A DNA stretch of 64,000 nt from Minisyncoccia bacterium (GCA_038230075.1 JBBRNV010000003.1:29329-93328); one strand, 5' to 3'; shown: positions 20,746-61,662, counted from the first letter of the stretch. Translations and numbers: made by a program. The notes: generated by a model not told the origin, from the letters alone.

Positions 20746-20812
20746 TATATAGATCAGAAATGACGAAGCCCACCGATGGCGGGTTCGCCATGATGGGCTG
20801 TTTTGCAAGATA

Positions 20813-21130
20813 TCAGACGGCACTTTCTGAGAGTGTGTCGTGCAGTAAAATGGCGGTTGCGTGCATTGCTTGTTGCAGGGTGGGAATGAGTCTCGTGGCG
20901 CAACCAAACGGAGTGATGTGCGTAAGAGTGGTACCACCATCAACAAGGATGAGATAATCGAACAGGGTATCTTCTTCGAGAGGAACTCCTGCTGCCGTAA
21001 GTTCAGCAGCTTGAAGATGTTTCGAGTGGTTTTGGCTGAGATCGTCTTCGCAAGAAAGCACAACATACACTCGGTCTGGTTGTTGCGAACGTACGTAGTT
21101 TATTCGGCCCTTCAGGAGTCTTATGATCAT
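20813..21130 (-). CDS. hypothetical protein in a GC-rich island
   Basis: 105-aa ORF with GC-rich codons (LILVDGGTTL motif); overlapping + strand ORFs look less protein-like; strand assignment is tentative. Confidence 0.3.
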   Translation of the reverse strand: MIIRLLKGRINYVRSQQPDRVYVVLSCEDDLSQNHSKHLQAAELTAAGVPLEEDTLFDYLILVDGGTTLTHITPFGCATRLIPTLQQAMHATAILLHDTLSESAV

Positions 21131-21242
21131 GTCGCTAGAGTTGGGGGTGGGTGGTATTTCGATTGGGTTGATTTGGCTCGAATGTAAAGTGGTTTGAAAG
21201 AGCCTTCATAGAGACTACCGCTCACACCTACCACTGTCAAAT

Positions 21243-21277
21243 AAACAAAAAACCACCGCTTGGGTGGTCTTTTGTTG
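21243..21277 (-). terminator. rho-independent terminator for the minus-strand gene ending at 21300
   Basis: ACCACC-GCTTG-GGTGGT hairpin; on the minus strand it is followed by TTTTTTGTTT. Confidence 0.6.
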
Positions 21278-21299
21278 TAACTTCTTGTTGAATACAAGA

Positions 21300-22337
21300 T
21301 TACTGTCCGATGTTCAATGTGTTGTTTGATCGATTGATATCGTTAACTTTTGCATTCTGGTCTACAGTGATTGAACCAAAACTTTTTGTTGGACTAGTGT
21401 ATCCAAGGGTGAAGATAATGCCGTCACCTGGCTTTAATGATTTCTGTGAAGGAGATGCGTAACTTTGATTGTTTACATCAGATGAAGGAAGTGTTGCATT
21501 GAAGTTCCATGACCCAGAAACTGCTGATCCAATGTTTTGAACTTCGAATCGAACTGCTGCAATGTCTGAAGAAGTAACATCTCGCTTGAGTGTATCAAGT
21601 GATACGAACTGGTGATTCTGATTAAGAATTCCATATTTCACAAGTGTAACAGAAAGGTCTGGTGTTCCTCCGATGACTTCTTGATATTCTGATGTGTGAG
21701 TTGTTTGAGGAGCAACACTTGCTTCTGCTGGATCTCCACCTTCGTACGCTGTGTGCTGATGAGGAACCATTGTTGATGGAGGATTGATTTCTGTTCCAAG
21801 TTTAATATTGATTGAACTTGTTCCCATAGCAATGATCGATCGATCAGTGCTAGACATAAGGAAGGCTTGGAAATTACTCTTTACCTGACTTGATGTTGAA
21901 GATGCAAGATTCTGATTAAGAAGAGGTCGAAGAATAACATCGTATTCTGTTCGGTCTAATGTATTTGTTGTTGATGCAACAGGAAGAGAGAATCGCTGTC
22001 CACATTGAATAGCTTGAACAGATGCATTTCGCACAAGTTCATAGTTCGCTACATCTGAACATTCATATTGAAATGAATATGTTCCGGCAATAGTGCTAGA
22101 ATGAATAACTCGAAGCATGAATGGTTCACCTGATCGAACAACTGTTTTGTCAGGGGATACATTAAGCATTACGATTCCTGATGGAGTACTTGTTGAAGTA
22201 CCTTTAATATTTGAAAGCGCTGTTAATGCTCGAGGAATAAGTTTTACAATTCCGAAAGCAATGAGAAATAATACGACTACAATAACGATAATAAAGATGA
22301 CGCGCAGAACTTTGTATAATGTTGAATCTTGATTCAT
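21300..22337 (-). CDS. hypothetical membrane-anchored extracellular protein
   Basis: N-terminal TM helix (VLRVIFIIVIVVVLFLIAFGIV), Ser/Thr-rich beta-type sequence, no catalytic motif. Confidence 0.5.
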   Translation of the reverse strand: MNQDSTLYKVLRVIFIIVIVVVLFLIAFGIVKLIPRALTALSNIKGTSTSTPSGIVMLNVSPDKTVVRSGEPFMLRVIHSSTIAGTYSFQYECSDVANYELVRNASVQAIQCGQRFSLPVASTTNTLDRTEYDVILRPLLNQNLASSTSSQVKSNFQAFLMSSTDRSIIAMGTSSINIKLGTEINPPSTMVPHQHTAYEGGDPAEASVAPQTTHTSEYQEVIGGTPDLSVTLVKYGILNQNHQFVSLDTLKRDVTSSDIAAVRFEVQNIGSAVSGSWNFNATLPSSDVNNQSYASPSQKSLKPGDGIIFTLGYTSPTKSFGSITVDQNAKVNDINRSNNTLNIGQ

Positions 22338-22384
22338 ATGGTGAGACTATACACTGTTTTTAAGGTCCCGTCAAGTATTGATAT

Positions 22385-22413
22385 TTGACTTTTATCAACA
22401 AATGAGCTATAAT
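22385..22413 (+). promoter_or_regulatory. sigma70-like promoter for the sortase gene: TTGACT, 17 nt, TATAAT
   Basis: Near-consensus hexamers; the -10 ends 6 nt before the ATG and no SD is present, so leaderless transcription is likely. Confidence 0.55.
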
Positions 22414-22419
22414 GTTCCC

Positions 22420-23103
22420 ATGTCAAATTTGAAATCTATGTTAAAAAACTTGCTTTCTACCAACGAAATAATCTTTATTTCGATCTTTGGTCTTGTCTTT
22501 CTTTTCTCTTTTGTTGGACTCTACCTCTTTGGAGCTGTGCCTGATGAATTTCGGTACTCTATGAACAATAACTCTATTATTGATAATGTTGAATCTCTTA
22601 AAGATGGAAAGGAAGGCCTCACTAATTTACAAAATACAAATGCCGAATACGACAATAGTACTATTGGTCTTAAACCAACTCGTATTGTTATTGCAAACGC
22701 CAGTGTTGATTATGCAGTAGAAAATCCACAAAGCACTAATGTGAATATTCTCGACGAAGCCCTTAAACGTGGAGCTGTTAGATACCCAAGTTCAGGAACT
22801 CCTGATAAAGGAAATATGTTTATTTTCGGCCATAGTACGAGCTTTAAGGTGGTAAACAATAAAGCCTATGAAGTCTTTAATAACTTGAAAGAATTGAAAG
22901 CTGGAGATGATATTAAAATCATTACTGACAAAGAAACCTTTATCTATAAGGTACGAACCGTTGATCTAGTTGATAGTCGAAAAGCACTTGTTGACCTTTC
23001 AACTGACAGACACATGCTCACTCTTTCAACATGTAATAGCTTCGGAGCTAGTTCTGACCGATATGTTGTTGAAGCTGACTTTGACCACACAGAAACTATA
23101 TAG
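22420..23103 (+). CDS. sortase-family transpeptidase
   Basis: N-terminal TM anchor; conserved His (MFIFGHSTSF); catalytic Cys in TLSTC (the TLxTC sortase signature). Confidence 0.7.
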   Translation: MSNLKSMLKNLLSTNEIIFISIFGLVFLFSFVGLYLFGAVPDEFRYSMNNNSIIDNVESLKDGKEGLTNLQNTNAEYDNSTIGLKPTRIVIANASVDYAVENPQSTNVNILDEALKRGAVRYPSSGTPDKGNMFIFGHSTSFKVVNNKAYEVFNNLKELKAGDDIKIITDKETFIYKVRTVDLVDSRKALVDLSTDRHMLTLSTCNSFGASSDRYVVEADFDHTETI

Positions 23104-23157
23104 TAGGCTCTCACAAAAGTAGGGAATTACTACTCAAATAAGACCACAATGAAGTAC

Positions 23158-23185
23158 TTGACAAATCCTTTAATTATGATATGAT
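23158..23185 (+). promoter_or_regulatory. sigma70-like promoter: TTGACA, 16 nt, TATGAT, about 190 nt upstream of the GC-rich ORF
   Basis: Consensus -35 and good -10; the downstream leader holds two perfect hairpins, at 23270-23308 and 23320-23339. Confidence 0.45.
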
Positions 23186-23374
23186 AGTAAATGAAAGTAG
23201 AGTACATTAAAAACTTGTCAGACTAAAAAAAGAAAGTGTTGGTTGTAACAGGTTAAGAGATTCATTGGTGAAGGAAATAAGAACGAATTATTTGTTTTTA
23301 TTTCCTTCACTAAACAAAGTCTGCTTCTCACGAAGCAGATGGTGAATACTCAAACCCAGTAGACCCACACGACC

Positions 23375-24460
23375 ATGCCCACACCCTCCGAAATCCGCAA
23401 TCTCCGCCGCGCCGTTACCGCCGCAGCTGGAGACGTCACCCGCACGTGCTCCGAGAAGCAGGCCGCTGAGCTCGCGCTCCGCAACGCCCGTTCCGCCACC
23501 CCCGTCGTTCCCGCCAACGTGACCGCCGCTGAGCTCGCGCTCAGCAACGCCACCACCGCGCACGACGAGGCCCTAGAAGTCCACGAGGAAGCCCAAGAAG
23601 AACTCACCACCACGACTGCTCCCCAGCCGTCGTTCGTCAAGAAGAATTGGATTCCGCTCAGCATCGCTGTTGCGGCCGTCCTGGTCCTTCTCATGATGTT
23701 CATGTTCATGATGTCCCGCATCGCTTCTTCCGAAGCGCGCGCGAACAACATCGCGAACACGACCCAGACGGAGATCACCCGCCTCGAAGCCGCCAAGGCC
23801 AAGGCCACCAGCGAAGCTTCCCAGGCCGAAGCCGCCAAGGCCAAGGCTGTCGCCGAAGCCGCCAAGGCCGAAGCCGCGCGTCAGACCGCGCTCGCTGAAG
23901 CCTCCCAGGCCGAAGCCGGGCGTCTGCAAGCTGAACGCAACGCCAACGCCCTGAACGAAGCCGAAACCGCCCGCCAAAAGGCCGCCGCTCAAAAGGCCGC
24001 GTCCCTCCCAGCGAAGCGTTTCGACCTGGCCGCCGGTGAAATCCCGACCAAGCCCAGCATGTGGGCCATTGTCGAAGGAGGCATTGTAACTTCGAACACC
24101 TTGGCCAACTCCAAGCAGTTCGTGCCAGCAATGGGTGACACGATCGTCCTCACCGACGCCGTGACCCTCATCCATGTCGAGATGCCCCTCCTGAACAAGG
24201 ACGGATCGCCCGCCATGCGCGCCGACGGTATCACTCCCGTCGGAAAAGTTTGCATCTTCAAAGGCATCGGCATCGACGGACAGCGTTACGACTTCGCCCT
24301 CAAGGGAGGTCTGCGTGTGACCTTCGTCCCGCAGGGTAGCAATGGCAAGGTGCGTGAGCAAGAGCTCGCGACCCAGCTGCCTTCCGGCAATCGGCCAACC
24401 GCGGTTCAGACTCCGATGGTGCCCGTTCGTCGCGCCATTGCGGTTCCTCCAAAGTCCTGA
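23375..24460 (+). CDS. hypothetical single-pass membrane protein with an Ala/Glu/Lys-rich coiled-coil; about 65% GC island
   Basis: GC3-rich codons on the + strand, central TM helix (PLSIAVAAVLVLLMMFMFMM), AEAAKAKA repeats, duplicated AAELAL(R/S)NA segment. Confidence 0.55.
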   Translation: MPTPSEIRNLRRAVTAAAGDVTRTCSEKQAAELALRNARSATPVVPANVTAAELALSNATTAHDEALEVHEEAQEELTTTTAPQPSFVKKNWIPLSIAVAAVLVLLMMFMFMMSRIASSEARANNIANTTQTEITRLEAAKAKATSEASQAEAAKAKAVAEAAKAEAARQTALAEASQAEAGRLQAERNANALNEAETARQKAAAQKAASLPAKRFDLAAGEIPTKPSMWAIVEGGIVTSNTLANSKQFVPAMGDTIVLTDAVTLIHVEMPLLNKDGSPAMRADGITPVGKVCIFKGIGIDGQRYDFALKGGLRVTFVPQGSNGKVREQELATQLPSGNRPTAVQTPMVPVRRAIAVPPKS

Positions 24461-24491
24461 CAAGTCTACTCCAACAGGAGTCCCACTAAGT

Positions 24492-24545
24492 GGCCAGCAA
24501 GTAATCGAGTTCGCTCGAAATCCTTTGCTGGCCATTTTTGTTTAT
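24492..24545 (+). terminator. hairpin with T-run after the GC-rich ORF
   Basis: GGCCAGCAA ... TTGCTGGCC stem (24-nt loop), followed by ATTTTTGTTT. Confidence 0.4.
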
Positions 24546-24628
24546 ATGATTTGACTTTTTATACTATCTAATGTATAATGATTCTACTTATCCGTAAGAC
24601 GATAGGTTATCAAATTAATAATACTTTT

Positions 24629-26338
24629 ATGAACACATATACAATTATCAAAAAATTATCAGCAGGATTTCTAATCTTCGCTACTATTGCGGTATTTTCA
24701 GTGTCACAAGTGACACCTGTTCGTGCAGACGGAGAAGATGAAGGTGATGGATATGCAACGAACTACTTTGGTTCAGGTTCAGACTTTGGATCATATGGAT
24801 CAAATTACGAAACTCCTTCATATGCAACTAATTACGAAACACCGTCTTACGCAACAAACTATACTCCATACGCTACAAACTACAATTCTCCATCTTACGC
24901 TTCAAACTTTGATGCATTCGCAACAAACTACCAAACTCCTACATACGTAACAGACTACGGAGCTTTCGCAACAAACTATCAGACAACATCATATGTAACT
25001 GATTACGGAGCATACGCTACCAACTATGAAACTCCTACATATGCAACAAACTACCAAACTCCTACATATGCAACAGACTACGGAGCTTATGCAACAAACT
25101 ACCAAACTCCTACATATGCAACAGACTACGGAGCTTATGCAAGTAATTACCAGACTCCATCATACGCAACAGACTATGTTGCTTTTGCAACAGACTATGG
25201 TGCTTTCGCAACAAATTATAACTACCCAACAAACACATCATGTTCAACTTGTGGAACTACGTATAACCCAACTACATGTTCAACATGTGGATCAAGTTAC
25301 ACACCCACAACATATGTAAGTACACCTTCTTACAACTACCCAACAAACACATCATGTTCAACTTGTGGCACTTCATATGTTCCTCCAGTTCGAACACCAA
25401 CATATAACCCTCCGGTTTACACACCTACAACATACACACAGCCACCTACATACACTCCTCCAACATATGTTCCTCCTGTGCGATGTACAACTTGTGGAAC
25501 AATTCCTACAACACCTGTAGTGTATAATCCACCAACATACAATCCTCCTACATATAACCCTCCAACGTATATTCCTCCAGTTTACAACCCACCTGTATAC
25601 ATTCCTCCAACAACTTGTTCAACATGTAACTATGTTCCTCCTACCTACAATCCTCCAGTTTATTACAACAATAACTACACAGCATATTGTGTAGGAACAA
25701 CACGAGGAAACTCAATTGAATGGAATATCTTCATTACAAACAACATCTACCACTTTACTCCAATAGTGTCATGGACAGGATCAAACGGATTCTATGGATA
25801 CGGTTCAACTGCTACTTACACATATCCAAACGGAGGTGTGCAGACAGCAAATGCAACTGTTAACTTGAATGGTCAGATTCAGAATGTGTCATGTACTTCA
25901 ACAACTGGTGGTGGATACGTTTCAGTTAATGAAAATCCAGGTGGAGTATATCTAAGTTCAATTCCTGCTACTGGCCTCTCAGCCAATATGAAGAACGTTC
26001 TCTTCATGGTAGGACTCCTTATGTGGTCAGCCTTCCTTGCATACATGTACGTTGCACGACGAAACTCTTCAATGAAATTCGCTCATGCACTTAACGGAAA
26101 TGCAGCAGGAGACTCTGTCTCAGAAGATGCAAGCGCATCAACTGAAGTAATAAGTCAGTCAGTTGATTCAAAAATCTCTGATATGGCTCGAGCAAAGAAT
26201 GTACTTCTTTCACACGACGCACTTCAATCTCTTGTAAATGCAGGTGAGTCACATGCATCAGCTGTACTTGCAAAGGTTGCAAACAATGGTGAATGGTCAA
26301 CTCTGAACAAAGCGAAAGTAGAAGAATTGTTAGGATAA
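24629..26338 (+). CDS. secreted repetitive surface protein with a C-terminal TM helix
   Basis: Signal peptide; tandem YATNYQTPT-type repeats; PPTYNPPVY Pro-rich repeats; three NTSCSTCG(T/S) units; IPATG followed by a hydrophobic helix and RR, then a roughly 100-aa tail. Confidence 0.65.
   Translation: MNTYTIIKKLSAGFLIFATIAVFSVSQVTPVRADGEDEGDGYATNYFGSGSDFGSYGSNYETPSYATNYETPSYATNYTPYATNYNSPSYASNFDAFATNYQTPTYVTDYGAFATNYQTTSYVTDYGAYATNYETPTYATNYQTPTYATDYGAYATNYQTPTYATDYGAYASNYQTPSYATDYVAFATDYGAFATNYNYPTNTSCSTCGTTYNPTTCSTCGSSYTPTTYVSTPSYNYPTNTSCSTCGTSYVPPVRTPTYNPPVYTPTTYTQPPTYTPPTYVPPVRCTTCGTIPTTPVVYNPPTYNPPTYNPPTYIPPVYNPPVYIPPTTCSTCNYVPPTYNPPVYYNNNYTAYCVGTTRGNSIEWNIFITNNIYHFTPIVSWTGSNGFYGYGSTATYTYPNGGVQTANATVNLNGQIQNVSCTSTTGGGYVSVNENPGGVYLSSIPATGLSANMKNVLFMVGLLMWSAFLAYMYVARRNSSMKFAHALNGNAAGDSVSEDASASTEVISQSVDSKISDMARAKNVLLSHDALQSLVNAGESHASAVLAKVANNGEWSTLNKAKVEELLG
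24770..25215 (+). repeat. in-frame tandem nucleotide repeats (27-nt and about 54-nt periods) encoding YATNY/YATDYGA units
   Basis: Near-identical copies such as actcctacatatgcaacagactacggagcttatgcaacaaactaccaa occur repeatedly. Confidence 0.8.
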
Positions 26339-26341
26339 TAA

Positions 26342-26433: not shown

Positions 26434-26435
26434 GC

Positions 26436-28539: not shown

Positions 28540-28561
28540 AAAGCTCAGTTGTACCAATAAT

Positions 28562-29191: not shown

Positions 29192-29497
29192 ATGGCAAAA
29201 AAATTGTACGTAGGGAACCTTTCATGGGGAACTACAACAGAAAGTTTGAAAGAAGCTTTCTCTCAGCTTGGTGAAGTCACAGAAGCAATCGTTATGATTG
29301 ACAAAATGACTAACCGAAGCCGAGGATTCGGATTCGTTACTATGGCAGACGACGCTGCAGCAGATGCAGCCGTAGCCAAGTTCAACGGTTCTGATCTTGA
29401 TGGTCGTCAACTAACTGTGAACGAAGCTCGACCTCGAGAAGATCGACCACAGGGAGAACGAGCACCTCGACGAAACTTTGATGATCGACGATTCTAA
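29192..29497 (+). CDS. RRM-type RNA-binding protein with an RG-rich tail
   Basis: RNP2 KLYVGNL and RNP1 RGFGFVTM motifs. Confidence 0.85.
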   Translation: MAKKLYVGNLSWGTTTESLKEAFSQLGEVTEAIVMIDKMTNRSRGFGFVTMADDAAADAAVAKFNGSDLDGRQLTVNEARPREDRPQGERAPRRNFDDRRF

Positions 29498-29550: not shown

Positions 29551-29590
29551 TTAACAAAATACCCACACGTAGAAATACAGTGGGTATTTT
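29551..29590 (+). terminator. rho-independent terminator after the RRM gene
   Basis: AAATACCCAC ... GTGGGTATTTTGTT hairpin with T-run. Confidence 0.6.
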
Positions 29591-29624
29591 GTTAACTGAG
29601 TGTATACTGTCGAATACATTTATC

Positions 29625-29975
29625 ATGAGCAAAAAAGATTACGAACGATATAAAGAACTTGCTCGAACTCTTGTTCATGAACGAATTCTCTATTTTAAAG
29701 AATTTTATAAAATAAACTTTGAGACTGATTTTTTGTTTAATCGAGTTGCTATCAAAAATTCAAAAACACGATGGGGAAGTTGTTCGAGTAAAAAGAATTT
29801 AAATTTTAATTACAATATTATTCATCTTCGGCCTGAAGTTGTTGACTATTTAGTAGTTCATGAGCTTTGTCATTTAATACAAATGAATCACGGGCCAAAT
29901 TTTTGGAATTTAGTTGAAAAAGCAATTCCTGACTATAAAAACTTAAGACGAATATTGCGAGCGGTGAGGCTTTAA
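29625..29975 (+). CDS. DUF45/YgjP-like zinc metallohydrolase (HExxH)
   Basis: HELCHLIQMNH zinc-binding motif and the YgjP-family context (WGSCS...). Confidence 0.6.
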   Translation: MSKKDYERYKELARTLVHERILYFKEFYKINFETDFLFNRVAIKNSKTRWGSCSSKKNLNFNYNIIHLRPEVVDYLVVHELCHLIQMNHGPNFWNLVEKAIPDYKNLRRILRAVRL

Positions 29976-30047: not shown

Positions 30048-30800
30048 ATGTCGGTCAACCCAAAACCCCATGTTCCTATGTCAGAACCTAAAGAGAAAAA
30101 CAAAGACATTCGCTTAGCCCTCGAGGCGGCAGGAGTGGTCCACCGTGGTCACTTTGTTTACAGCAAACCAGACCCTGCTGGCCAAGGAGATCATGGTGAA
30201 GTCTACGTCAACAAAGACGGGATCTATACCAAACCCGAGTTCGTTCGTGATCTCTGTGAAGAAATGGCTGATGAATTGCGGCCTATTATCGCTCAGTTTC
30301 CGAACGCGTCAGTCGTCGTCGGACCAGAGAAGGGTGGGATCATTCTTGCTCAGTGGCTGGCCTTCAGCCTGAACCTTTTGCTTGAGGCACAAGGAAGTGA
30401 GCCTTGCTTTCGCGCTGTCTTTGCAGAAAAGAAGGCCGGAGGTGGCTTCTTTCTCGGTCGTGGTTACGACTTAATCGTTCGCGACCGAGATGTCATTGTC
30501 GTCGAAGACATCCTCAACTCGGGCGGGAGCGCCAAACAGGCTGTTGCTGCAGTTCGTGACGCGGGAGGAAATCCTGTTGCACTCACTGCCATTTGGAATC
30601 GAGGTGGTGTGACCGCGGGTATGATTGGTGGCCCACATCTGTTTTCGCTCGTCGATATGCAGTTCAAGAAATACACGTGGCAAGCATGTCCAATGTGTGC
30701 GGAGGGAGTTCCAGTTCGCACCGACCTCGGCCACGGTCAGGCATTCCTCGATCGCATGCAAATGCGCGTTCTCGATGGTCGAAATACACCACTCGATTGA
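30048..30800 (+). CDS. type I phosphoribosyltransferase (orotate PRTase-like); GC-rich gene
   Basis: PRPP-binding loop DVIVVEDILNSGGSA; about 58% GC with GC3-rich codons; start codon uncertain (30048 or 30078). Confidence 0.6.
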   Translation: MSVNPKPHVPMSEPKEKNKDIRLALEAAGVVHRGHFVYSKPDPAGQGDHGEVYVNKDGIYTKPEFVRDLCEEMADELRPIIAQFPNASVVVGPEKGGIILAQWLAFSLNLLLEAQGSEPCFRAVFAEKKAGGGFFLGRGYDLIVRDRDVIVVEDILNSGGSAKQAVAAVRDAGGNPVALTAIWNRGGVTAGMIGGPHLFSLVDMQFKKYTWQACPMCAEGVPVRTDLGHGQAFLDRMQMRVLDGRNTPLD

Positions 30801-30821
30801 AGGTGTGACTGATTGCCAATG

Positions 30822-30860
30822 CAAAAGGCGGAGTCTCTCGCGAGACTCCGCCTTTTCACA
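30822..30860. terminator. GC-rich bidirectional terminator between the PRTase gene and typA
   Basis: GGCGGAGTCTC-TCGC-GAGACTCCGCC 11-bp stem flanked by AAAA and TTTTC. Confidence 0.75.
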
Positions 30861-32674: not shown

Positions 32675-32756
32675 ATGAAAAGGTGATTGAGAAATAAAAA
32701 ACGGCTTTTGGCCGAACGGGTATATTTAACCAAATTTTAAGGCTTTGGTCAAATAG

Positions 32757-32812
32757 AAAGCCCGCCCCGTTAAGACTGCACAGGGGCGGTCTTACTATGG
32801 GCGGGCTGGGCC
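32757..32812 (-). terminator. GC-rich nested stem-loop element between the upstream minus-strand gene and typA
   Basis: AGCCCGCCCC / GGGGCGG / GGGCGGGCT complementary blocks; on the minus strand followed by TTTCTATTTG. Confidence 0.4.
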
Positions 32813-32819
32813 GTACCAA

Positions 32820-33500
32820 TTAAGGTTTGTCGATGTCTGACTCTGCCAACAAAGCTAACGATCGAACTCGGTCGGTGCCACTTAACGATTCAAATGTCGC
32901 AACCGCGAGGGTGTTGAGAAATTCATTGATCGCCAGATCTTGCTCAGAAAGCAGTGTCGAACGACTGATAACCTCAAGTCCAAAGTGTCGCTTCAAACCT
33001 TTTGTTCCGTTGTAAACTCTCAGGGCTGCTTTCAGCCTTTCCGACATCTTTGACGAAAAATGTTCCTCAGCATCAATACGTTTCTTGGCTAACGGTATGA
33101 ATTGAAGCACATCAAACAAAACCTGTTCGAAGTGCTGTTTGTCGAGTGTGGGGTGGAGATGAGCGAGCCCTTCGAAAAGGCCTGTGATGATAGCGTGGAA
33201 CAGCTCTGCACTTTCTCGATTTTTTGCCGAGATGAGAGCCTCTTTCTTTGCGGACAACGCCTTGAAGAGTGACTTCCGATTGCCGTAGAAGCAGCAAAGT
33301 AGCGCCATGATGGTGACAGCGATATTGTTCAACATCACATCGATTGGCTTTCGTTTTTGACCGATCAAGCCGATAGCTTCAACGGCTTTTCCAACCCTTC
33401 GACCAACTATGGCTTCGAGGGCTGTTTGAATCATTTGGTCTTCGAAATGCACTGCACATTCTGAGATAATGAGGACTGATTTTACTTGTGAACGAACCAT
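32820..33500 (-). CDS. hypothetical helical protein, possibly a regulator
   Basis: 226-aa ORF at moderate GC with no clear HTH; a G-tract lies immediately upstream at 33508-33526. Confidence 0.4.
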   Translation of the reverse strand: MVRSQVKSVLIISECAVHFEDQMIQTALEAIVGRRVGKAVEAIGLIGQKRKPIDVMLNNIAVTIMALLCCFYGNRKSLFKALSAKKEALISAKNRESAELFHAIITGLFEGLAHLHPTLDKQHFEQVLFDVLQFIPLAKKRIDAEEHFSSKMSERLKAALRVYNGTKGLKRHFGLEVISRSTLLSEQDLAINEFLNTLAVATFESLSGTDRVRSLALLAESDIDKP

Positions 33501-37724: not shown

Positions 37725-37752
37725 GGGCGCACGACTTGCGTGCGCCCGATCG
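37725..37752. terminator. GC-rich bidirectional terminator
   Basis: GGGCGCACG-ACTTG-CGTGCGCCC hairpin plus a CCCGATCGGG mini-palindrome; T-rich sequence on both strands. Confidence 0.65.
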
Positions 37753-37768
37753 GGTGATTTTTCCGGCC

Positions 37769-38122: not shown

Positions 38123-38190
38123 GAATCAGTTGAGCGGGGGGTTGGGGTTCAGAATCTTTATATAACACTTTTACTACAATGTCAAAGTAT

Positions 38191-49159: not shown

Positions 49160-51094
49160 TTATTTTGTTTTGAATTCATAGACCCCGTTCCAATTTTCTG
49201 GAGGTTGTTCAATCAAATGTGTGCATCGTTCAATATATACAGCACTTGGTCCGTCATGGTGAAATGATAATGCTTGATTGAAAGAATTGATAGCATTTTT
49301 AAAATCTCCTTGAACATACAACACTCTTCCTTGTTCAAACTTTTGTAAGATTTCTGTAATGTGAGGAGTCTCTGGACGAGTAAGAAGTTCATATATTACT
49401 TTTGGCTCTTTTTTCCCTTTTACAATTACTCGGTCAAGTTCTCTGAATAGAATTTGAGGATGATTTTGTTGTGTCGAAGGTGAAAGTTTTTTAAGACTCG
49501 CTTCGCATTGTTTTTTTGTTTCTTCAGTAATAATGCATTCAACTCCATATGCCTTAGTTAAACCTTCGAGTCGTGATCCTAAGTTAACCTCGTCACCCAT
49601 AATGGTGTAATTGAATCGCCGTTTGCTTCCCATATTTCCAACAACAACATCTCCTGTGTTGAGTCCAATTCCAATCGCAATAGTTGGCGAATTTCTTTCA
49701 ACGAGTGATTCATTTAATTTTTTCAACTCTGCAGACATGGTAAGTGAAGCGACACACGCATCGTATGCTTGATCGTTATTTTGAAGTGGTGCTCCCCAGA
49801 ACGCCATAATTGCGTCACCAATATATTTATCAACCAATCCTCGTTTGTTCATGATGGTGTCGGTCATTAATGTGAGGTATTCATTTAACAGATTAGTCAG
49901 TTCTTCTGGAGACAATTTTTCAGAAAGTGTGGTGAAGCCTCGAATGTCTGAGAATAAAACAGTAACTTTCTTTCGTTCACCCCCCAATTTTAATTTATCT
50001 GGATTTTCGAGAAGTTCGTTGATAACATCGGGCATTAAATAATACTGAAATGTTTTATGAATCATTCGCTTTTCTTTTCCTTCAGAAATATATGAATACA
50101 GAAAGCTTAAGATTCCTGAAACAATAAAAGCAAGAAGTGCATACAATGTTCCGAAAATATAATGAAAATGAAATACACTAAATGTTCCAAGAATGATAAG
50201 AGCAAAGATACTTGAAAGACTAATAATTACGAGAGAAAGTCTCTTTGAAAGAACAATAGAAAGAGAAGTGAGGAGTGAGATAAGGAAAAGAATTAAAAGG
50301 AAAAGTGCGTTTGGAATAGGTGTGAGAAAATTTTTCTCAAGAAGTGTGTTGATGGCATTTGCATGAACTTCAACACCAGCCATGCTTCCGAATGGAGTCT
50401 GTAGTTGATCATGTAAATCATTCGCCGTCACTCCAATAAGCACAATGGCATTATCAAATATTCTAGCAGGAATTTTATGTTCGAAAACGTCAGCAAAAGA
50501 AAGTATTAAAAAACTTTTTGAGGGACCGACGAACGTAATTCTGTTTTGAGTTGATGTTTCTGTTTGTCCTGAGACAACACTTGAAAAGCTGCGCTCACTA
50601 TCATTACTCGTATTGTTAATTCGTCGAACGATTCCGTCAGAATCTACAGGGATATTTACAAAGCCTTTTTTTACCGACTGATCAAAAAGAGGGAGTGGGC
50701 GTACTCCAACTGTACTGTCATCTCTTAATTGAAGAGGGAAAGTGACAGGGACTTTTGAAGCATTGATAGCTTCTTTAAAAACCAGGTCATCATTATTGTC
50801 TTTGAACGAAGGACTTGAGAAGTCGATATCAAAACCGATAGCTTTAGCAAGTTGAAGATCGGGAATAACCGACGCAAATGTTTTTCGTTCCCAAGGCCAA
50901 CGTCCCATACTCTGAAGACTTTCATCGTCAATTCCAAGAATGATAATAGAAGATGTAACTTTTTGCTTCAGAAATAAATGATCAGTGATTTTTTCTTGCC
51001 ATGTTCCAAAAACATTGTATGTGTAGGCGAAAGCAGAAAGAATAAAAGCAACAAGTACAAATAAACTCGTAATAATTATTTTTTTATTTGGCAT
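49160..51094 (-). CDS. CHASE2-sensor class III adenylate/guanylate cyclase with a C-terminal TPR-like tail
   Basis: N-terminal TM helix plus CHASE2-like periplasmic domain, a four-helix TM block, and a cyclase core (VTVLFSDIRGFT ... GDAIMAFWGAP ... IGLNTGDVVVGNMG). Confidence 0.8.
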   Translation of the reverse strand: MPNKKIIITSLFVLVAFILSAFAYTYNVFGTWQEKITDHLFLKQKVTSSIIILGIDDESLQSMGRWPWERKTFASVIPDLQLAKAIGFDIDFSSPSFKDNNDDLVFKEAINASKVPVTFPLQLRDDSTVGVRPLPLFDQSVKKGFVNIPVDSDGIVRRINNTSNDSERSFSSVVSGQTETSTQNRITFVGPSKSFLILSFADVFEHKIPARIFDNAIVLIGVTANDLHDQLQTPFGSMAGVEVHANAINTLLEKNFLTPIPNALFLLILFLISLLTSLSIVLSKRLSLVIISLSSIFALIILGTFSVFHFHYIFGTLYALLAFIVSGILSFLYSYISEGKEKRMIHKTFQYYLMPDVINELLENPDKLKLGGERKKVTVLFSDIRGFTTLSEKLSPEELTNLLNEYLTLMTDTIMNKRGLVDKYIGDAIMAFWGAPLQNNDQAYDACVASLTMSAELKKLNESLVERNSPTIAIGIGLNTGDVVVGNMGSKRRFNYTIMGDEVNLGSRLEGLTKAYGVECIITEETKKQCEASLKKLSPSTQQNHPQILFRELDRVIVKGKKEPKVIYELLTRPETPHITEILQKFEQGRVLYVQGDFKNAINSFNQALSFHHDGPSAVYIERCTHLIEQPPENWNGVYEFKTK

Positions 51095-51098: not shown

Positions 51099-52277
51099 TT
51101 AATACCCAGTCGTGTACGAACCGTATGAGTAGGTAACTGTTAGGCCACTTTTATATGAAACAGTAGAGTCATCTTTTAATAGAAGATATACATCGTAAGT
51201 GCCTGGAGAAAGCTGGCCGATATGAAATTGAAGTGTTCCATCATCGATAACAGAAAGATCTTGGACATTGTTTTCTCCAATGATGACATCTGAAACATTT
51301 TGGAAACCAGTTCCTTTAAGAATGACATATGTTTTATTGTCGCCAGAAGCAATACTTGATGGAGTAACACTTCGAATACTTGTTGGTGTTGAAGCACCAC
51401 TTGTTCCTCCTGAAGAAGCTGGTGCAGATGGTGATGGAGCCGATGTGATTCCTCCTCCCGAAGATTGTCGAGGAGGGACTGGTGTTACCGGTGGTGGTGT
51501 TATGCTCGAATTGTTTCTTGTAGTGGTTGTAGCTCGAGGAGTACTTGTTGAAGTTGTTATTGGTTTTACAGAAATTGTTGCGTCGCTTGTAATAACAACT
51601 GGCTTTGCATCTGCATTATTATAGACATACCATTCTTTCTTCATGTCATCACCTGAAATGGGAATAACCACAATATCTTTTCCATCTTCAATGATTGCTT
51701 TAAATCCTGCCTTAACAGAAGTTTCAGTTCCTTGAATAGGTTCTCCTGTTGTAGGATCTTTTTTGTACACAAATACTTCACCTTCAGTAACATTTACTTC
51801 AGTAATGCCACCTGCAAAGTTCACGCCAAATGATGTACCACGAACAACAGCAACAGCATTTCCTGTTTTAATTTCGAAAAATTCTCCTTGTTCAGCAGAT
51901 TTTTTAGCACGTGCCCATAATTCACCACCAAGTAGTTCAATGTTATTTTTTGTCGTGTCGTCAGAGGTGCTCACTACCACCTCACTGTTGTAATCAACCA
52001 TAGTTGGATGTCCGTGAGGAGATTCAATAAGTGCTCGTCCGGTTGATGAGGTTTTAATTACAGAGTTGCTTGGAGTAGTTGTACTTGTTGGAATAGCTGT
52101 GTCGGAAGAAGCATCTTTCATTCGAAGTGAAACATTCTGTTCAACGGTCGTTACGGTAATAGGAAATGTTGCTGCAGATGTGGGCATGACTGTTTTTGTG
52201 TCCGATTGATTTTTGTATAAAAGAAAGACAGCCCCAAGAATGATAATCGCGACTATACCAAGTGAAAGTTTTTTCAT
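51099..52277 (-). CDS. FecR-domain plus IPT/TIG-domain secreted or anchored protein
   Basis: N-terminal TM helix; FecR-like beta region (AVVRGTSFGVNFAGGITEVNVTEGEVFVY); Pro/Ser/Thr linker; C-terminal IPT-like domain; 4 bp upstream of the cyclase start. Confidence 0.55.
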   Translation of the reverse strand: MKKLSLGIVAIIILGAVFLLYKNQSDTKTVMPTSAATFPITVTTVEQNVSLRMKDASSDTAIPTSTTTPSNSVIKTSSTGRALIESPHGHPTMVDYNSEVVVSTSDDTTKNNIELLGGELWARAKKSAEQGEFFEIKTGNAVAVVRGTSFGVNFAGGITEVNVTEGEVFVYKKDPTTGEPIQGTETSVKAGFKAIIEDGKDIVVIPISGDDMKKEWYVYNNADAKPVVITSDATISVKPITTSTSTPRATTTTRNNSSITPPPVTPVPPRQSSGGGITSAPSPSAPASSGGTSGASTPTSIRSVTPSSIASGDNKTYVILKGTGFQNVSDVIIGENNVQDLSVIDDGTLQFHIGQLSPGTYDVYLLLKDDSTVSYKSGLTVTYSYGSYTTGY

Positions 52278-52607: not shown

Positions 52608-52661
52608 TCTTTATACTATCTTTATTTTGTTGTTCGCCGAATTTTAATGTTTGAATCTAAA

Positions 52662-52704
52662 TAAAAAAACCGCCCGCCTCGAGTTGTGCTCGAGAGCGGG
52701 GCAG
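52662..52704 (-). terminator. GC-rich rho-independent terminator for the minus-strand gene ending at 52721
   Basis: CCGCCCGCCTCGAG-TTGTG-CTCGAGAGCGGGG hairpin; on the minus strand followed by TTTTTTT. Confidence 0.65.
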
Positions 52705-52720
52705 TTGGTTCGGTCTGCGT

Positions 52721-53020
52721 TTAGTTGCGCAACCGAATGCTTAAGGGGCCAATGTTGATGGCGGAAAGCCGTTGCGCCAACTTCTGACGCTGCTGCGGAG
52801 GAGTAGTATGGTTGAAACCACCATGAGTGGTTGGAGGGACAAACTTTTGACCTTCAGGTTGCATGATCGGATAGAGCCGACCATCTTTCAACAAGTAGGC
52901 CACATGGACCAATTTCTTGGTTGGGCGGCGCGCAGGCTGCTGAGCCTGTGCGGAAGGGGTGAAGATGACGGAGGTGAAGGCGAACACGAGGAGCGCCAAG
53001 ACGAGTTTGAGGATGTTGTT
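52721..53020 (-). CDS. hypothetical small secreted protein; GC-rich cassette
   Basis: Signal peptide (LALLVFAFTSVIFTPSAQA), GC3-rich codons; start set at the Met that begins the signal peptide. Confidence 0.5.
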   Translation of the reverse strand, partial: NNILKLVLALLVFAFTSVIFTPSAQAQQPARRPTKKLVHVAYLLKDGRLYPIMQPEGQKFVPPTTHGGFNHTTPPQQRQKLAQRLSAINIGPLSIRLRN

Positions 53021-53146
53021 CATGCTATCTAAAGCCAGGCTAACTAGCTTCACATAGCATGAACACATCGAAGAACTTTACTATCGTATTATACCATATT
53101 ACTGATAAATGTCAATTAATCAGACAACATTAAACCAGCCTTTATG

Positions 53147-53841: not shown

Positions 53842-54243
53842 ATGCGAAAAAGTAAGTACACTCCTGGAGACTACAAAGTTGTTGTTAAGCGTTCATCTGC
53901 AGGTCTTGGTTTATTTGCTTCTGAAGAAATTCCAAAAGGAAAGTGTGTCATCGAATATGTGGGAAGAGTAATTAAAGGAAAAGAAGAATATACCAGCAAT
54001 AGTAAATACTTATTTGAGGTTCACTCTCGAAAAACTATTGATGGAAGAGATCGCTCAAATATAGCTCGATATATTAATCATTCATGCAAAGCAAATGCTG
54101 AACCGACTATTCATAAAGCACGAGTATTTATTATGTCTAAAAGGAAGATACTTGCTGGAGAAGAGATTGTGTATGACTATGGTGAAGATTATTGGGGTGA
54201 ACACATACAACCAAAAGGATGCAGGTGTAGAAAGTGCTCATAG
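53842..54243 (+). CDS. minimal SET-domain protein lysine methyltransferase
   Basis: GLGLFA (GxG), RYINHSCKANAE (NHSCxxN), EEIVYDYGEDYW (ELxxDY) and post-SET CRCRKC. Confidence 0.8.
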   Translation: MRKSKYTPGDYKVVVKRSSAGLGLFASEEIPKGKCVIEYVGRVIKGKEEYTSNSKYLFEVHSRKTIDGRDRSNIARYINHSCKANAEPTIHKARVFIMSKRKILAGEEIVYDYGEDYWGEHIQPKGCRCRKCS

Positions 54244-54823
54244 CACCACGTTTCGTTGACTTTCTTTGTAAAGATTGTACTGTATTTTAAGAATGAAAAC
54301 TATTTCTGGTTGGAGGCCGACATTGTTGGCAGAAAGGTTGTTAGAAGAGCGTGAGAATCGCGGTGGGTTTATACAAAAAAGGTAGTTGAGAAGACAAAAA
54401 TCAAAAAGGTCTGGGGAAAAAATGCAAAAAAAAGACCGAAAGCTCGTCCCGGATTTCACCTGACCAGCAAACCCAAAGAACTTGCTCGACATTTTGTTGG
54501 AAACCGATTTCTGACTGCTTTGAAAGGAAAGTTGTTTCGAGATCCTTCCAACTTCTATTACTTTATGTGGAATGCTGTGCACGTGCACATTTTACACATG
54601 AGCGAAGAGGGGTTGGTGGATGTTCTTGAAAAGTTCTCTTCGAACGATCCTTCTTTTCCGCGAAGTATGACCGCAGAACGGCTGCTTCGTGGTAATCTCA
54701 CTAACAGCTTTTACCAAAAGGGACAAGTTGTTACATATGTAGATTCGGTGATTGCAATCATCGTTGCTGCCGTCTATGATTTTGTTTTTCCTCCCACACT
54801 TTCTGTTGCTCAAAAACAAGGCA

Positions 54824-54857
54824 ACAAAAAGAAAAAGAAAAAGAAAAAGAAAAAAAA
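54824..54857 (+). repeat. (AAAAAG)n microsatellite
   Basis: aaaaagaaaaagaaaaagaaaaagaaaaaaaa read directly. Confidence 0.8.
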
Positions 54858-55027
54858 TTTCGCGCTACAATCTCACTCCAACCACTGACCTCGCCTTAAA
54901 CCGGCGAGTTTTGTGTTTTATAAAACAAAGCTCCGCGTATCAATATATAAAAAGGAAAACCGCTCGCCGAAGGTGAGCTCATTGAGCGGGTCCTTGGGGA
55001 GCGATTTGTGTACCGAATGTTCGAAGA

Positions 55028-55759
55028 CTAGCCGCCAGGAGTGTAGATCGGCATCTCCTTAAACTTGAGACGACGAATCAGGTCGGTGAGGATGAGTCGA
55101 ACCACTTGGTCTCGATTCATATCAGTATTGTCGATTTCCATCGAACAAGGATGCCTCACGAATGGTGAAACCGATCTTTCGGTATCGTGCCTGTCGCGCT
55201 TCTGGAGCCCTTGTACGATCTCTGCGTACGTTTGTTCGGGCTGATCTTTCGGCTGATCCTTAAAGCGGCGAGCTGCTCTCGTGGCGACCTCGGCGGTGAT
55301 GAAGTAGCCGCTGCACCGACCGTTTTCGGCGTCGAAGATTTTTCTCATGTCCCGACCTTCGGGCACGAGACCAGGCAGTTGCCTGCGGGACATCTGATAG
55401 TCGTGCATCATCGCACGTACTTCTGGTATTGCGCTGACAGCGGAAACCCGATCCGAGCAAGCCTTGTAGCGAATTTCTTCGGTGACTTCGATTTCACCGA
55501 CGAAAACCTTCCCATCGACGAACGTTGTCGGATACTGAAGTGCGACTTCGATCACATTGTTCGGATTGGTGATGTCGATACCGTGGACGATGGTGAGGTG
55601 TGCCACCGACCGGTAGAGAGCGCCGCTGTCGAGGTGTTTGAAGCCGAGAATTCGAGCAAGCTCACGAGCGGTCGAACTTTTGCCGGATCCGCCAGGACCA
55701 TCGATGGCGATAACTTCTGCGAGTAGATTAGGAGGTGTTAGTTGAGTGAGGGTGGCCAT
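55028..55759 (-). CDS. cmk: cytidylate kinase; GC-rich gene
   Basis: IAIDGPGGSGKSSTARELARILGFKHLDSGALYR matches the Cmk P-loop/NMP-binding signature; GC3-rich codons, about 55% GC. Confidence 0.8.
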   Translation of the reverse strand: MATLTQLTPPNLLAEVIAIDGPGGSGKSSTARELARILGFKHLDSGALYRSVAHLTIVHGIDITNPNNVIEVALQYPTTFVDGKVFVGEIEVTEEIRYKACSDRVSAVSAIPEVRAMMHDYQMSRRQLPGLVPEGRDMRKIFDAENGRCSGYFITAEVATRAARRFKDQPKDQPEQTYAEIVQGLQKRDRHDTERSVSPFVRHPCSMEIDNTDMNRDQVVRLILTDLIRRLKFKEMPIYTPGG

Positions 55760-55902
55760 TCGGCCTCCTTTCTTTTTCGAGGGGTGAAACTGTGGGTGAG
55801 GTTCGTCTTCGAAACACATGTATGAGTCAAAGAAGAGCTTTCAATAGAGTAGTGGTTTAGAGCATTAAAGTCAAACCATATATTACAACAAAGAGAATAA
55901 CT

Positions 55903-57098: not shown

Positions 57099-57139
57099 GC
57101 AACTATCCTAGCACATTTTAAAATGTATACTTATTTTAT

Positions 57140-57667: not shown

Positions 57668-57690
57668 TCTGTTCGTGTTATAATGGAGGT

Positions 57691-58122: not shown

Positions 58123-58149
58123 TTTATTAGAAAGATTTAATGTATTTTT

Positions 58150-58572: not shown

Positions 58573-58595
58573 GTTTTGTAATACATAATGTGACT

Positions 58596-59750: not shown

Positions 59751-59794
59751 GCAGATTCCTTTCTACTTTCTGAGAATGATAGTAGTATGTCGAC

Positions 59795-60697
59795 ATGCAA
59801 ACATCTTCACTCCGAGACTCTCTTAAGAAAATTCCAGGTGCGATTTCACTGTACTATGTTGGTGTCTATGGGTTTAATGTGGTTAATAGTTGGTACACCA
59901 AGCTTTTTATCACTATTTTTATGCGAAAAGAGGCCTCTCTTTTGAAAGATTTACCGAAGAAAGTTGTGGCAGTTCATAGTAAGCAAGAGCTCAATCTTTC
60001 AAATAAAAAACAGTATTATGTTGGAAAAAATATTCTCGGGTATCCTGCACTTTCGTATATTGAAAAGAATGGAAAAATGATTGGGTGGTCAGATAAGGTT
60101 CTTGAGAGAAATGGTGAGACACTTCCTTTTCTTCAAGTAACTCCAGATATTGAAATAAATATTCCTCTTATTTTTGAAACATTGAAGCCTGATTTTGTGA
60201 TAGATTTCGGAACGGCGTCTGGCGGTTCTGCTGTGTACTATTACGAACTCATTTCAAAATATACAACTCCACATATTCTAACAATTGATATCACTGACGC
60301 AGATGTTGTTCGTGGAAAAGCCTTTCATGATAAAAACAAAAGTTTTGAAAAGATTAGTTTCCTCACAGGAAAAAGTGGACTTGATCGGGTGAGTGAAGTA
60401 CAAGCATTTCTTGCAAATCGAACTGATGAACAGAAAGTATTATTTTCATTCGACGATGATCATTCATATCAACATACATATAATGAACTCACTACATTTG
60501 CGCCTCTGCTAAAAACTGGAGATGTAATTTTAATGCAAGATACATGGGATCAGGGATTATATAATCACGAAACATCTCCCATGCTTGCAGTTGAAAGATT
60601 CCTTCAAGAGAATAATGATTTTTTGCTTGATATTGATCTACTTTCTAAACTCGAATTGCCAAGTAATTTCATCTACGGAGTTTTAGTGAAAATATAG
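59795..60697 (+). CDS. class I SAM-dependent methyltransferase-fold protein of the CmcI / rhamnosyl-O-methyltransferase family
   Basis: DFVIDFGTASGGSAVYY Rossmann-like motif resembles CmcI (PF04989-type) proteins. Confidence 0.5.
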   Translation: MQTSSLRDSLKKIPGAISLYYVGVYGFNVVNSWYTKLFITIFMRKEASLLKDLPKKVVAVHSKQELNLSNKKQYYVGKNILGYPALSYIEKNGKMIGWSDKVLERNGETLPFLQVTPDIEINIPLIFETLKPDFVIDFGTASGGSAVYYYELISKYTTPHILTIDITDADVVRGKAFHDKNKSFEKISFLTGKSGLDRVSEVQAFLANRTDEQKVLFSFDDDHSYQHTYNELTTFAPLLKTGDVILMQDTWDQGLYNHETSPMLAVERFLQENNDFLLDIDLLSKLELPSNFIYGVLVKI

Positions 60698-60699
60698 GG

Positions 60700-61233
60700 T
60701 TATTTCTTCAAGGTATTTAACAGAAGCTCATATTGCTCATATCGAGGTGTAAGAGTTTGGTCTTTTTCATCAACCATTTGTTGTAGTTTTTTTATTTCAA
60801 TCCATTTCAAATCTTGCACTTCAGTGGTCTGCATTACAAAATCTTTGATGGGTTTATCTGTCCGAAGAAGATACACATCACTAAATTCATTATCAAAATA
60901 TGTTCCATCATTTTTAATGAGAGATGTTTTAAGAGCACCTAAGTGTTCGAGATCTGTTTCTGTAATGTGTAAACCAATTTCTTCTTCAACTTCACGAACA
61001 GCAACACGTAATGAATCTTCATTAGTTGAAACATGTCCTCCTATTGATACGTCCCACAAGTTTGGATAGTGATCTTTAATAGCCGATCGATGTTGAAGAA
61101 GTACTTCATTTTTTGAATTAAGAACGAAAACAAAAATAACTCGATGCCACTCACCAAGTTCATGAACAGCTTTCCGCGATTTTGCTAATCCTGTCAGATT
61201 TCCTTCTGAAGTGAGGGTGTCAATTAATTCCAT
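60700..61233 (-). CDS. NUDIX hydrolase
   Basis: Nudix box GGHVSTNEDSLRVAVREVEEEIGL; start set at MELIDTL, since the upstream in-frame extension is GC-rich and not protein-like. Confidence 0.75.
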   Translation of the reverse strand: MELIDTLTSEGNLTGLAKSRKAVHELGEWHRVIFVFVLNSKNEVLLQHRSAIKDHYPNLWDVSIGGHVSTNEDSLRVAVREVEEEIGLHITETDLEHLGALKTSLIKNDGTYFDNEFSDVYLLRTDKPIKDFVMQTTEVQDLKWIEIKKLQQMVDEKDQTLTPRYEQYELLLNTLKK

Positions 61234-61309
61234 TCGAGTATTATAGCAAAAACAAGAACACCCACCGAAATGGGGTTCGTGTGGGTGGGGTGGGCGACAT
61301 TCATCATTG

Positions 61310-61612
61310 TCACCAAGGTCTGACGTATTCCGTGAGAACCCAGTGTTCAACTTCGCCGGCAAAGATGTGATCGGTCACTGGTTCAAAAAGTTTGATTACT
61401 CCACCATCTTGCAGTTGACGAAAGTCGCTGATGTGAGGTTGAGTCGGAAAGAATTCCCGAAATCTTTCTCCATACATGAGTGCAACCGTATTTCTGCCAA
61501 TTCGATAGAGTCTCGCGCCCACCTTGAGCGCCTGCACGATACTTTTTCCGTTCATGAGTATTTGTGGGTAAGGGGTGGTGTAAGAGTTGGACAGCCGATA
61601 TATAAATATCAT
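61310..61612 (-). CDS. hypothetical small protein; GC-rich cassette
   Basis: 100-aa ORF with GC3-rich codons; an overlapping + strand ORF (61307..61666) is the alternative; strand tentative. Confidence 0.3.
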   Translation of the reverse strand: MIFIYRLSNSYTTPYPQILMNGKSIVQALKVGARLYRIGRNTVALMYGERFREFFPTQPHISDFRQLQDGGVIKLFEPVTDHIFAGEVEHWVLTEYVRPW

Positions 61613-61662
61613 GTTTTGACCGACCTGTCGAAGTTTTTAAGAGTTTTGTTCTTTATGATAAA

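Follow-up and report, generated by a model that had tools for sequence, protein, structure and literature searches.

Dispersed GC-rich single-gene islands in an AT-rich Paceibacteria-like chromosome: probable acquisitions from higher-GC sources

Why does the AT-rich chromosome of an ultra-small bacterium contain short, sharply bounded stretches of GC-rich DNA, each about one gene long? This question is raised by a 64,000-nucleotide (nt) stretch of DNA from a Minisyncoccia bacterium (GCA_038230075.1, JBBRNV010000003.1:29329-93328), denoted here the window; all coordinates count from its first letter. The organism is a Paceibacteria-like Patescibacterium, for which the nearest public gyrB is 73% identical and the nearest TypA is 77% identical. 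The GC-rich stretches, which we denote islands, had been taken in a preliminary description for the products of multiple horizontal transfers from a high-GC donor. In the account that we favor, with a probability of about 0.7, the islands are several independent single-gene horizontal acquisitions from higher-GC sources into an AT-rich Paceibacteria-like chromosome. Transfer is thus the best-supported reading, given the discrete, foreign-looking single-gene units, three of which (islands 4, 4b, and 5) are absent in syntenic relatives; the notion of a single donor is not supported.

Seven GC-rich islands, each with one protein-coding gene

The overall GC content of the window is 38.4%. Across the 66 open reading frames (ORFs) of the working set, the GC content at third codon positions (GC3) has a median of 0.26 and a robust standard deviation of 0.042, and host genes span the range of 0.19-0.31. 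The housekeeping genes gyrB, gatB, pheS, and pheT were identified, all at host composition, in agreement with what had been proposed for such genes. Maximal-scoring-segment analysis, with a cutoff of 13.0 set at the 95th percentile of the permutation maximum score, yielded seven GC-rich segments, which together account for 7% of the window and occur roughly 1.1 times per 10 kb. These segments correspond to island 2 (20762-21154, score 15.1), island 3 (23355-24533, 63% GC, the strongest, score 147.8), island 4 (30111-30852, score 45.7), island 4b (32760-33424, score 15.9), island 5 (37725-38147, score 21.8), island 6 (52670-53005, score 27.7), and island 7 (54960-55811, score 52.7). Among the eight segments listed in the preliminary description, six are significant and two (1-250 and 61255-61620, with scores of 9.7 and 9.9, respectively) are marginal; island 4b is missing from that list.

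Each of the seven islands consists of one gene with GC3-rich codons, as had been described earlier: GC3 of the island genes is 0.45-0.75, which corresponds to a robust z of about 4-12 against the host median. The three-base GC periodicity is strong in all seven and shows that the islands are protein coding. Amino acid usage is shifted as well, with FYMINK residues depleted in most island proteins and GARP residues enriched in the island 3 protein and in the phosphoribosyltransferase (PRTase) encoded in island 4.

Island 3 (23355-24545, plus strand) contains a gene at 23375-24460 for a 361-amino-acid (aa) protein, with GC1/2/3 of 0.65/0.51/0.75. The protein combines an N-terminal region and one transmembrane (TM) helix with a coiled-coil-like stretch rich in Ala, Glu, and Lys and a C-terminal domain that is beta-rich. 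A terminator hairpin (24488-24537, fold z = -5.5) is followed by UUUUUGUUU, and a consensus scan revealed a putative sigma-70-like promoter upstream (23158-23185, plus strand; TTGACA, 16-nt spacer, TG-TATGAT) with 11 of 12 matches. Island 4 (30078-30856, plus strand, 54% GC) contains a gene at 30078-30800 for a 240-aa pyrE-like PRTase, with GC3 of 0.50. This protein matches PF00156 above the cutoff (3.8e-7) and TIGR01367 with 7.5e-31 and 107 bits, below the curated cutoff of 150. The hairpin at 30824-30855 is a bidirectional terminator common to the PRTase gene and the convergent TypA gene. No pyrF adjoins the PRTase gene in the window, whereas its homologs in other Patescibacteria adjoin pyrF.

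Island 7 (54945-55811, minus strand, 54% GC) encodes cytidylate kinase (cmk, 55028-55759, 243 aa, GC3 of 0.60), preceded by an AGGAGG ribosome-binding site ahead of the start codon and followed by a terminator hairpin (55007-54957) with a U-run. The assignment is based on a full-length match above the curated cutoff: PF02224 is matched with E = 1.6e-48 over profile positions 1-207 of 211, and TIGR00017 with 152.3 bits against a cutoff of 135.55.

The remaining four islands, all on the minus strand, encode orphans. Island 2 (20762-21154, 51% GC) contains a 105-aa ORF (20813-21130; GC1/2/3 of 0.62/0.40/0.45) with a terminator hairpin at 20799-20767 (fold z = -4.7). Island 4b (32750-33500, 49% GC) encodes a 226-aa all-helical protein (32820-33500; GC3 of 0.49, robust z = 5.4), with a terminator hairpin at 32807-32759 (fold z = -3.3) and a U-tract. 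The island 5 protein (37725-38184, 53% GC; gene 37769-38122, 117 aa, GC3 of 0.67) has two TM helices; its predicted promoter (38184-38156: TTGACA, 17-nt spacer, TATAAA) was read from the sequence, and its terminator hairpin is at 37747-37725. The product of island 6 (52661-53115, 57% GC; gene 52721-53023, GC3 of 0.63) is a 100-aa secreted protein with a signal peptide ending in AQA, with a putative promoter at 53115-53088 that shows 12 of 12 consensus matches and a terminator hairpin at 52706-52668 (fold z = -4.4) followed by U7.

Thus, all seven island genes carry a strong hairpin and a U-run 3' of the gene on their own coding strand, with fold z from -2.8 to -5.7, and near-consensus sigma-70-type promoters are predicted in the AT-rich flank directly upstream of islands 3, 5, and 6. 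The three stem-loops quoted in the preliminary description do occur where it placed them. They are, however, ordinary intrinsic terminators of the island genes and not marks of insert boundaries or of inserted DNA, given that host genes carry terminators of the same kind, for example, at 21252-21268 and 54890-54908.

For islands 3, 5, and 6, the public gene calls, both on the 95.5-kb NCBI contig and on Logan contigs, are on the strand opposite to the one that we assign, with antisense ORFs of 320, 136, and 74 aa, respectively. Logan contigs are de Bruijn k-mer contigs from the single run SRR19962015; having been built from the same reads, they represent an independent assembly but not independent data. 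We assign island 3 to the plus strand and islands 5 and 6 to the minus strand because the promoter, the terminator, and the statistics of GC3 and of G at second codon positions (G2) agree; for island 5, the minus strand is the inferred choice. Island 3 gives a G2 of 0.13 if read on the plus strand and of 0.35 if read on the minus strand, compared to 0.14 in host sense genes. The island 2 ORF is called identically in the Logan contig L170. Gene callers tuned to the AT-rich host took the antisense strand at three of the seven islands, and therefore the true proteins of these islands are missing from protein databases; the true island 3 protein, in particular, is absent from the protein collection that we searched because the public call is on the opposite strand. 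Such antisense calls inflate the apparent orphan status of the genes and hide possible links between genomes.

Islands in gaps of a conserved gene order

Gene order could be compared for islands 4, 4b, and 5. The closest relative with genomic context (locus L082) shows the order HisRS-TruB-RRM-TypA-ABC ATPase-permease-PilB-PilC, without counterparts of the PRTase, island 4b, and island 5 genes. The PRTase gene is absent from the gap between TypA and RRM in four related loci (L082, L084, L085, and L087); the island 4b gene is absent between TypA and MarR in L083 (order TypA-MarR-HlyD) and between TypA and the ABC ATPase in L082; and the island 5 gene is absent between the MacB permease and PilB in L082. 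Islands 4, 4b, and 5 would accordingly be gains or accessory genes located in gaps of a conserved gene order, a position that fits acquisition. AT-rich genes specific to the window occupy the same gaps, and therefore these gaps are general zones of gene flux.

A YgjP-like metallopeptidase fragment (29580-29975, 30% GC) lies directly upstream of the PRTase island, in the gap that is empty in the syntenic relatives. It covers profile positions 109-205 of 207, with the N-terminal half missing, and can be considered a sign of local gene flux.

Homologs of the island proteins and potential donors

In the searches carried out, only two of the seven island proteins have detectable homologs. The PRTase family is rare, with 53 proteins, and in a neighbor-joining tree computed without support values, the nearest clade shows 48-52% identity. 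This clade includes a Patescibacteria metagenome-assembled genome (MAG) in which the gene is located beside pyrF and pyrG, and the best identity is 51%. The named relatives come from Patescibacteria, Kaiserbacteria, and Ktedonobacteria, and in Patescibacteria loci of 44% and 53% GC, the PRTase gene matches the local composition. The best non-self homologs of cmk are 39-42% identical, the named ones being from Beta- and Gammaproteobacteria. The two homologous loci inspected show the order aroA-cmk-rpsA-HU at 53-55% GC, with a cmk GC3 of 0.56-0.61, both of which match island 7.

For the five orphans (islands 2, 3, 4b, 5, and 6), there was no match in Pfam, NCBIfam, PHROGs, or PDB, the PHROGs scan giving only weak low-complexity matches. 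No match emerged from a tblastn search of 72,556 plasmids and 50,697 phages with the concatenated orphans as the query, from two scans of IMG/VR, or from a comparison with 2.3 Mb of Patescibacteria loci. The C-terminal domain of the island 3 protein gave zero matches in an exhaustive phmmer search against 1.84e9 representatives. Each island protein forms a singleton cluster, known from this genome alone. AlphaFold2 models of the 226-aa island 4b orphan and of the island 3 C-terminal domain are unusable, with predicted local distance difference test (pLDDT) scores of 43 and 37, respectively.

The composition of the islands gives an indication of the kind of genome from which they could have come. 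In 119 related loci, genomic GC was regressed on median GC3 (r = 0.94), and by this relation the islands correspond to donor genomes of 44-58% GC. The related loci as a whole range from 29% to 61% GC, which is wide enough to account for all islands. Those whose TypA shows 70% or higher identity to that of the window still span 34-61% GC, including L083 at 54% and L128 at 61%; GC content has changed rapidly in this clade. Among the relatives with 71-77% identical TypA is also L086, at 49% GC, compared to 38% here. Taken together with the homologs, the GC3 range of 0.45-0.75 speaks against the single high-GC donor that had been suggested earlier: the PRTase and cmk point in different directions, and the donors are probably several and heterogeneous. 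Most of them probably belong to other Patescibacteria with a higher GC content; one gene at least, cmk, is by sequence similarity of proteobacterial type.

Acquisition and its alternatives

We propose the following scenario. Donors with a moderately to clearly higher GC content, with genomes of about 44-58% GC, would have contributed pieces about one gene long, each ending in its own intrinsic terminator. At least three of these units would be driven by the near-consensus sigma-70-type promoters predicted in the AT-rich flank. With one gene, its own terminator, and, in at least three cases, a flank promoter, each island would therefore be a monocistronic unit complete in itself, placed either between two host genes or where a host operon ends. 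The likeliest route of entry would be uptake of DNA fragments followed by illegitimate recombination. High GC3 would persist because the AT-biased mutation of the host has not yet had the time to erase it.

Several observations weigh against this scenario. The pooled, GC-normalized dinucleotide delta* of the islands is 64, below the 95th percentile of the null distribution (77), in a test of low power. The syntenic relatives are only 75-77% identical in TypA, so that loss in those genomes, rather than gain in this one, could account for the gaps, and the comparison covers islands 4, 4b, and 5 but none of islands 2, 3, 6, and 7. No donor was found for any island, the best non-self identities being 51% for the PRTase and 42% for cmk; the cmk comparison had no Patescibacteria cmk set, and the trees are neighbor-joining trees without support values. 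A word-indexed search of 5.8e9 proteins produced no homolog of the island 3 protein. For islands 2, 4b, 5, and 6, the lack of matches refers to families, PDB, plasmids, phages, and related loci, the large protein databases having been searched, among the orphans, with island 3 only. Finally, a barely ameliorated GC3 of 0.75 predicts a donor protein that is still very similar, and its absence requires entirely unsampled donor lineages. The organism's native genes themselves show only 40-77% identity to public sequences; that no close donor emerged is less surprising because this lineage and its neighbors are very poorly sampled.

The best surviving alternative, which we nevertheless consider unlikely, is native compositional heterogeneity, whereby the islands would be genes specific to the lineage, inherited vertically and maintained in situ at a high GC content. 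Selection on the mRNA or protein, or local GC-biased repair or recombination, would maintain it. Such an origin would agree with the orphan status of five of the seven island proteins and the singleton clusters formed by all of them, with a dinucleotide signature that cannot be distinguished from that of the host, and with promoters and terminators that look host-like. However, no known mechanism lifts GC3 from 0.26 to 0.75 over exactly one gene with sharp borders, and conserved, presumably highly expressed genes, namely, gyrB, TypA, aminoacyl-tRNA synthetases, and GAPDH, remain at the background GC3. Furthermore, islands 4, 4b, and 5 are missing from the syntenic relatives, and in genomes of higher GC content, homologs of the PRTase and cmk do not deviate in composition.

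Acquisition specifically from a high-GC actinobacterial host of the organism, the donor named as plausible in the preliminary description, appears very unlikely. Patescibacteria can be episymbionts (PMC12455944), the islands are GC rich, and the island 3 protein is Ala rich, all of which would suit such a donor. The homology searches, though, gave no actinobacterial best match for any island protein: the PRTase groups with Patescibacteria, cmk resembles proteobacterial proteins, and the orphans have no detectable homologs, including the island 3 protein, despite the dense sampling of Actinobacteria. The implied donor GC of 44-58% is also below that of typical high-GC Actinobacteria, and Actinomycetota are the donor in only 1 of about 130 published transfer events (PMC12455944).

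Still less probable is that the islands are cassettes of a dedicated mobile system, whether integron-like or passengers borne by miniature inverted-repeat transposable elements (MITEs) or insertion sequences (ISs), or else GC-rich genes for structured RNAs. Single-gene units with a hairpin at one end are reminiscent of the former, and GC peaks in AT-rich genomes often mark the latter. Nevertheless, in a search for target duplications and terminal repeats, the direct and inverted repeats across the island borders reached only 8-10 nt, equal to random positions; no motif is common to the borders; and the islands show no similarity to each other. Among the 20 flanking genes searched against Pfam, there was no integrase, transposase, or recombinase. 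The flanks consist of ordinary chromosomal genes, those for gyrB, sortase, HisRS, TruB, an RRM protein, TypA, and MarR and, further, HlyD/MacB ABC transporter components, DedA, PilB, a FecR-like protein, a SET-domain protein, and an AI-2E transporter. Instead of forming an array, the islands are scattered among core genes across 35 kb, and on the coding strand a U-run follows each hairpin, as expected of a terminator. With no shared border motif, repeat, or recombinase found, the earlier term "cassettes" is not warranted. As for structured non-coding RNA genes, these can be ruled out given the strong codon periodicity and the absence of any family match: Rfam at gathering thresholds and ARAGORN, applied to the whole window, detected nothing under any island and only two tRNA-Thr genes (326-399 and 13094-13169), neither adjoining the seven islands. 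For island 2, Rfam at an E-value threshold and folding of both strands also gave no RNA gene.

The assembly supports the integrity of the locus. All seven islands, with both borders of each, are internal to Logan contigs that match the window at 100%: islands 2 and 3 are in L170 (20711-25069), islands 4 and 4b in L169, island 5 in L171, island 6 in L172 (the region around this island), and island 7 in L081 (54828-64000), L169 and L171 being parts of one 17,069-bp contig that extends from 25339 to about 42400. The single 95.5-kb NCBI contig likewise contains several island proteins, the PRTase and cmk among them. Chimeric assembly or contamination, raised earlier as an alternative and suggested by the abrupt composition jumps in a genome that is itself a MAG, can therefore be dismissed as the least probable explanation, considering that AT-rich host sequence lies on both sides of every island within single-run contigs, that the Logan contigs break at a repeat-protein gene (25069-25339) and at an (AAAAAG)n run (54828) but never at island borders, and that misjoining high-GC fragments of other organisms would require at least 14 false joins exactly at gene boundaries, each yielding a promoter, an ORF, and a terminator, which is not credible.

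Recurrence in the lineage and comparison with known forms of gene transfer

The occurrence of isolated GC3-rich genes recurs across the lineage. In a GC3-outlier test on the loci of 80 relatives, 20 contained at least one isolated outlier gene, the products including a radical-SAM enzyme, an HD-domain protein, a ParB-like protein, and small membrane or secreted orphans. When loci are ranked by the share of their bases that falls within outlier genes, the window is fourth of 80; it shows the largest GC3 excess (+0.49) and about seven times the average outlier density. GC3-rich accessory genes of the relatives were seen, for example, in L052 (3522-4955 and 12254-13333), L136 (1909-7043, four consecutive genes), and L106 (12896-13567); they encode radical-SAM-like and HD-domain proteins and secreted or lipoprotein orphans. 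In another locus, L017, gyrB itself (5166-7256) looks like a compositional outlier, with GC3 of 0.59 within a locus of 44% GC; a transfer of gyrB into a Paceibacteria MAG has been reported (Gios et al. 2025, PMC12455944).

Horizontal gene transfer (HGT) in this phylum has been surveyed in 125 Patescibacteria MAGs, where it accounts for up to 13% of the genome length (Gios et al. 2025, mSystems, PMC12455944). In that study, 83% of the transfers were within the phylum, with occasional Pseudomonadota donors. The events described there resemble the islands in the recipient phylum, in the varied accessory genes, including those for nucleotide metabolism and membrane proteins, and in donors that are mostly from within the phylum and occasionally from Pseudomonadota, and the 7% of the window occupied by islands compares to the published maximum of 13% of a genome. 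Unlike those events, the ones proposed here were recognized by composition alone, are 0.3-1.2 kb in size, cannot be traced to a donor, and number about 1.1 per 10 kb, compared to about 1.1 transferred genes per Mb. The published methods rely on a donor in the dataset (MetaCHIP) or on islands of at least 2.7 kb (IslandViewer), and micro-islands escape them because they require a sampled donor or such a length (PMC12455944). More generally, such genes would escape standard HGT tools, given that the island finders among these depend on lengths of several kilobases and the donor-based methods on a donor that has been sampled.

Classical genomic islands resemble those in the window in that their GC content and codon usage deviate from the host and in that related genomes lack them. 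They are, however, 10-200 kb long, associated with tRNA genes, and equipped with an integrase and flanking direct repeats, whereas the islands here are 0.3-1.2 kb and lack these features, the only possible tRNA association being that of the truncated, marginal island 1, which is near tRNA-Thr. Integron gene cassettes are likewise single-gene (or promoterless) units whose 3' end carries an imperfect inverted repeat, but they come with attC sites, intI, and a tandem array; the islands have none of these and instead carry U-run terminators and, in at least three cases, putative promoters of their own. The orphans of the window resemble ORFans in being short, lineage-restricted, devoid of homologs, and atypical in composition, and often in having membrane or secreted products. 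Daubin and Ochman (2004), in the ORFan literature, reportedly attributed many ORFans to phage-like sources. Classical ORFans are AT rich relative to the host, in contrast to the GC-rich islands, for which the phage and plasmid searches gave no match.

Acquisition with incomplete amelioration is a textbook mechanism, and the example described here stands out by the density of the islands, the tiny size of the units, and the mis-annotation of strands. It would mean that very small foreign genes build up in large numbers, about one per 10 kb, even in a streamlined bacterium of ultra-small size. A further idea, which is speculative and which we do not expect to hold, is that the dense GC-rich units, mostly small membrane or secreted orphans, reflect a specific recurrent route of single-gene capture in Patescibacteria, for instance, competence-mediated uptake of short DNA pieces whose source would be a physically associated partner or sister lineage of higher GC content. 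Micro-islands would in that case be a compositional fingerprint of the host or partner, as well as a hidden gene pool that is misread by current annotation, as with the wrong strand at three of seven islands.

Marginal segments and other features of the window

The two marginal segments both contain ORFs with raised GC3. Island 1 (12-188, plus strand, score 9.7) is the 3' end of a frame-3 ORF with GC3 of 0.62, cut by the window edge, and lies about 140 bp upstream of the tRNA-Thr(CGU) gene at 326-399. Island 8 (61259-61612, 51% GC, score 9.9; minus strand, with uncertainty) contains a 100-aa orphan ORF (61310-61612, GC3 of 0.48) that is also called in the Logan contig L081; the best frames have GC3 of 0.48-0.53, and the protein has no family match in Pfam, PHROGs, or NCBIfam. 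Two intragenic GC peaks (29314-29472 and 51394-51499) are low-complexity coding stretches within host genes and not islands. The latter, in the FecR-like gene, shows an extreme phase bias, with GC by codon phase of 0.15/0.85/0.45.

The (AAAAAG)n run at 54826-54856, where L081 ends (54828), adjoins a terminator; a mechanically called ORF across it (54520-54888), with a poly-Lys tail, is probably not a real gene. Between islands 3 and 4, a gene at 24578-26338 encodes a 586-aa protein of YATNY and PPTY-type repeats with Cys-rich motifs and a weak extensin-like Pfam match, which, located near a sortase gene (22378-23103), is probably a surface protein. Two further genes at host composition encode a 133-aa SET-domain protein (53842-54243; PF00856, 4.6e-22) and a CHASE2-adenylate/guanylate cyclase (49160-51094), accessory functions that are unusual for a streamlined genome.

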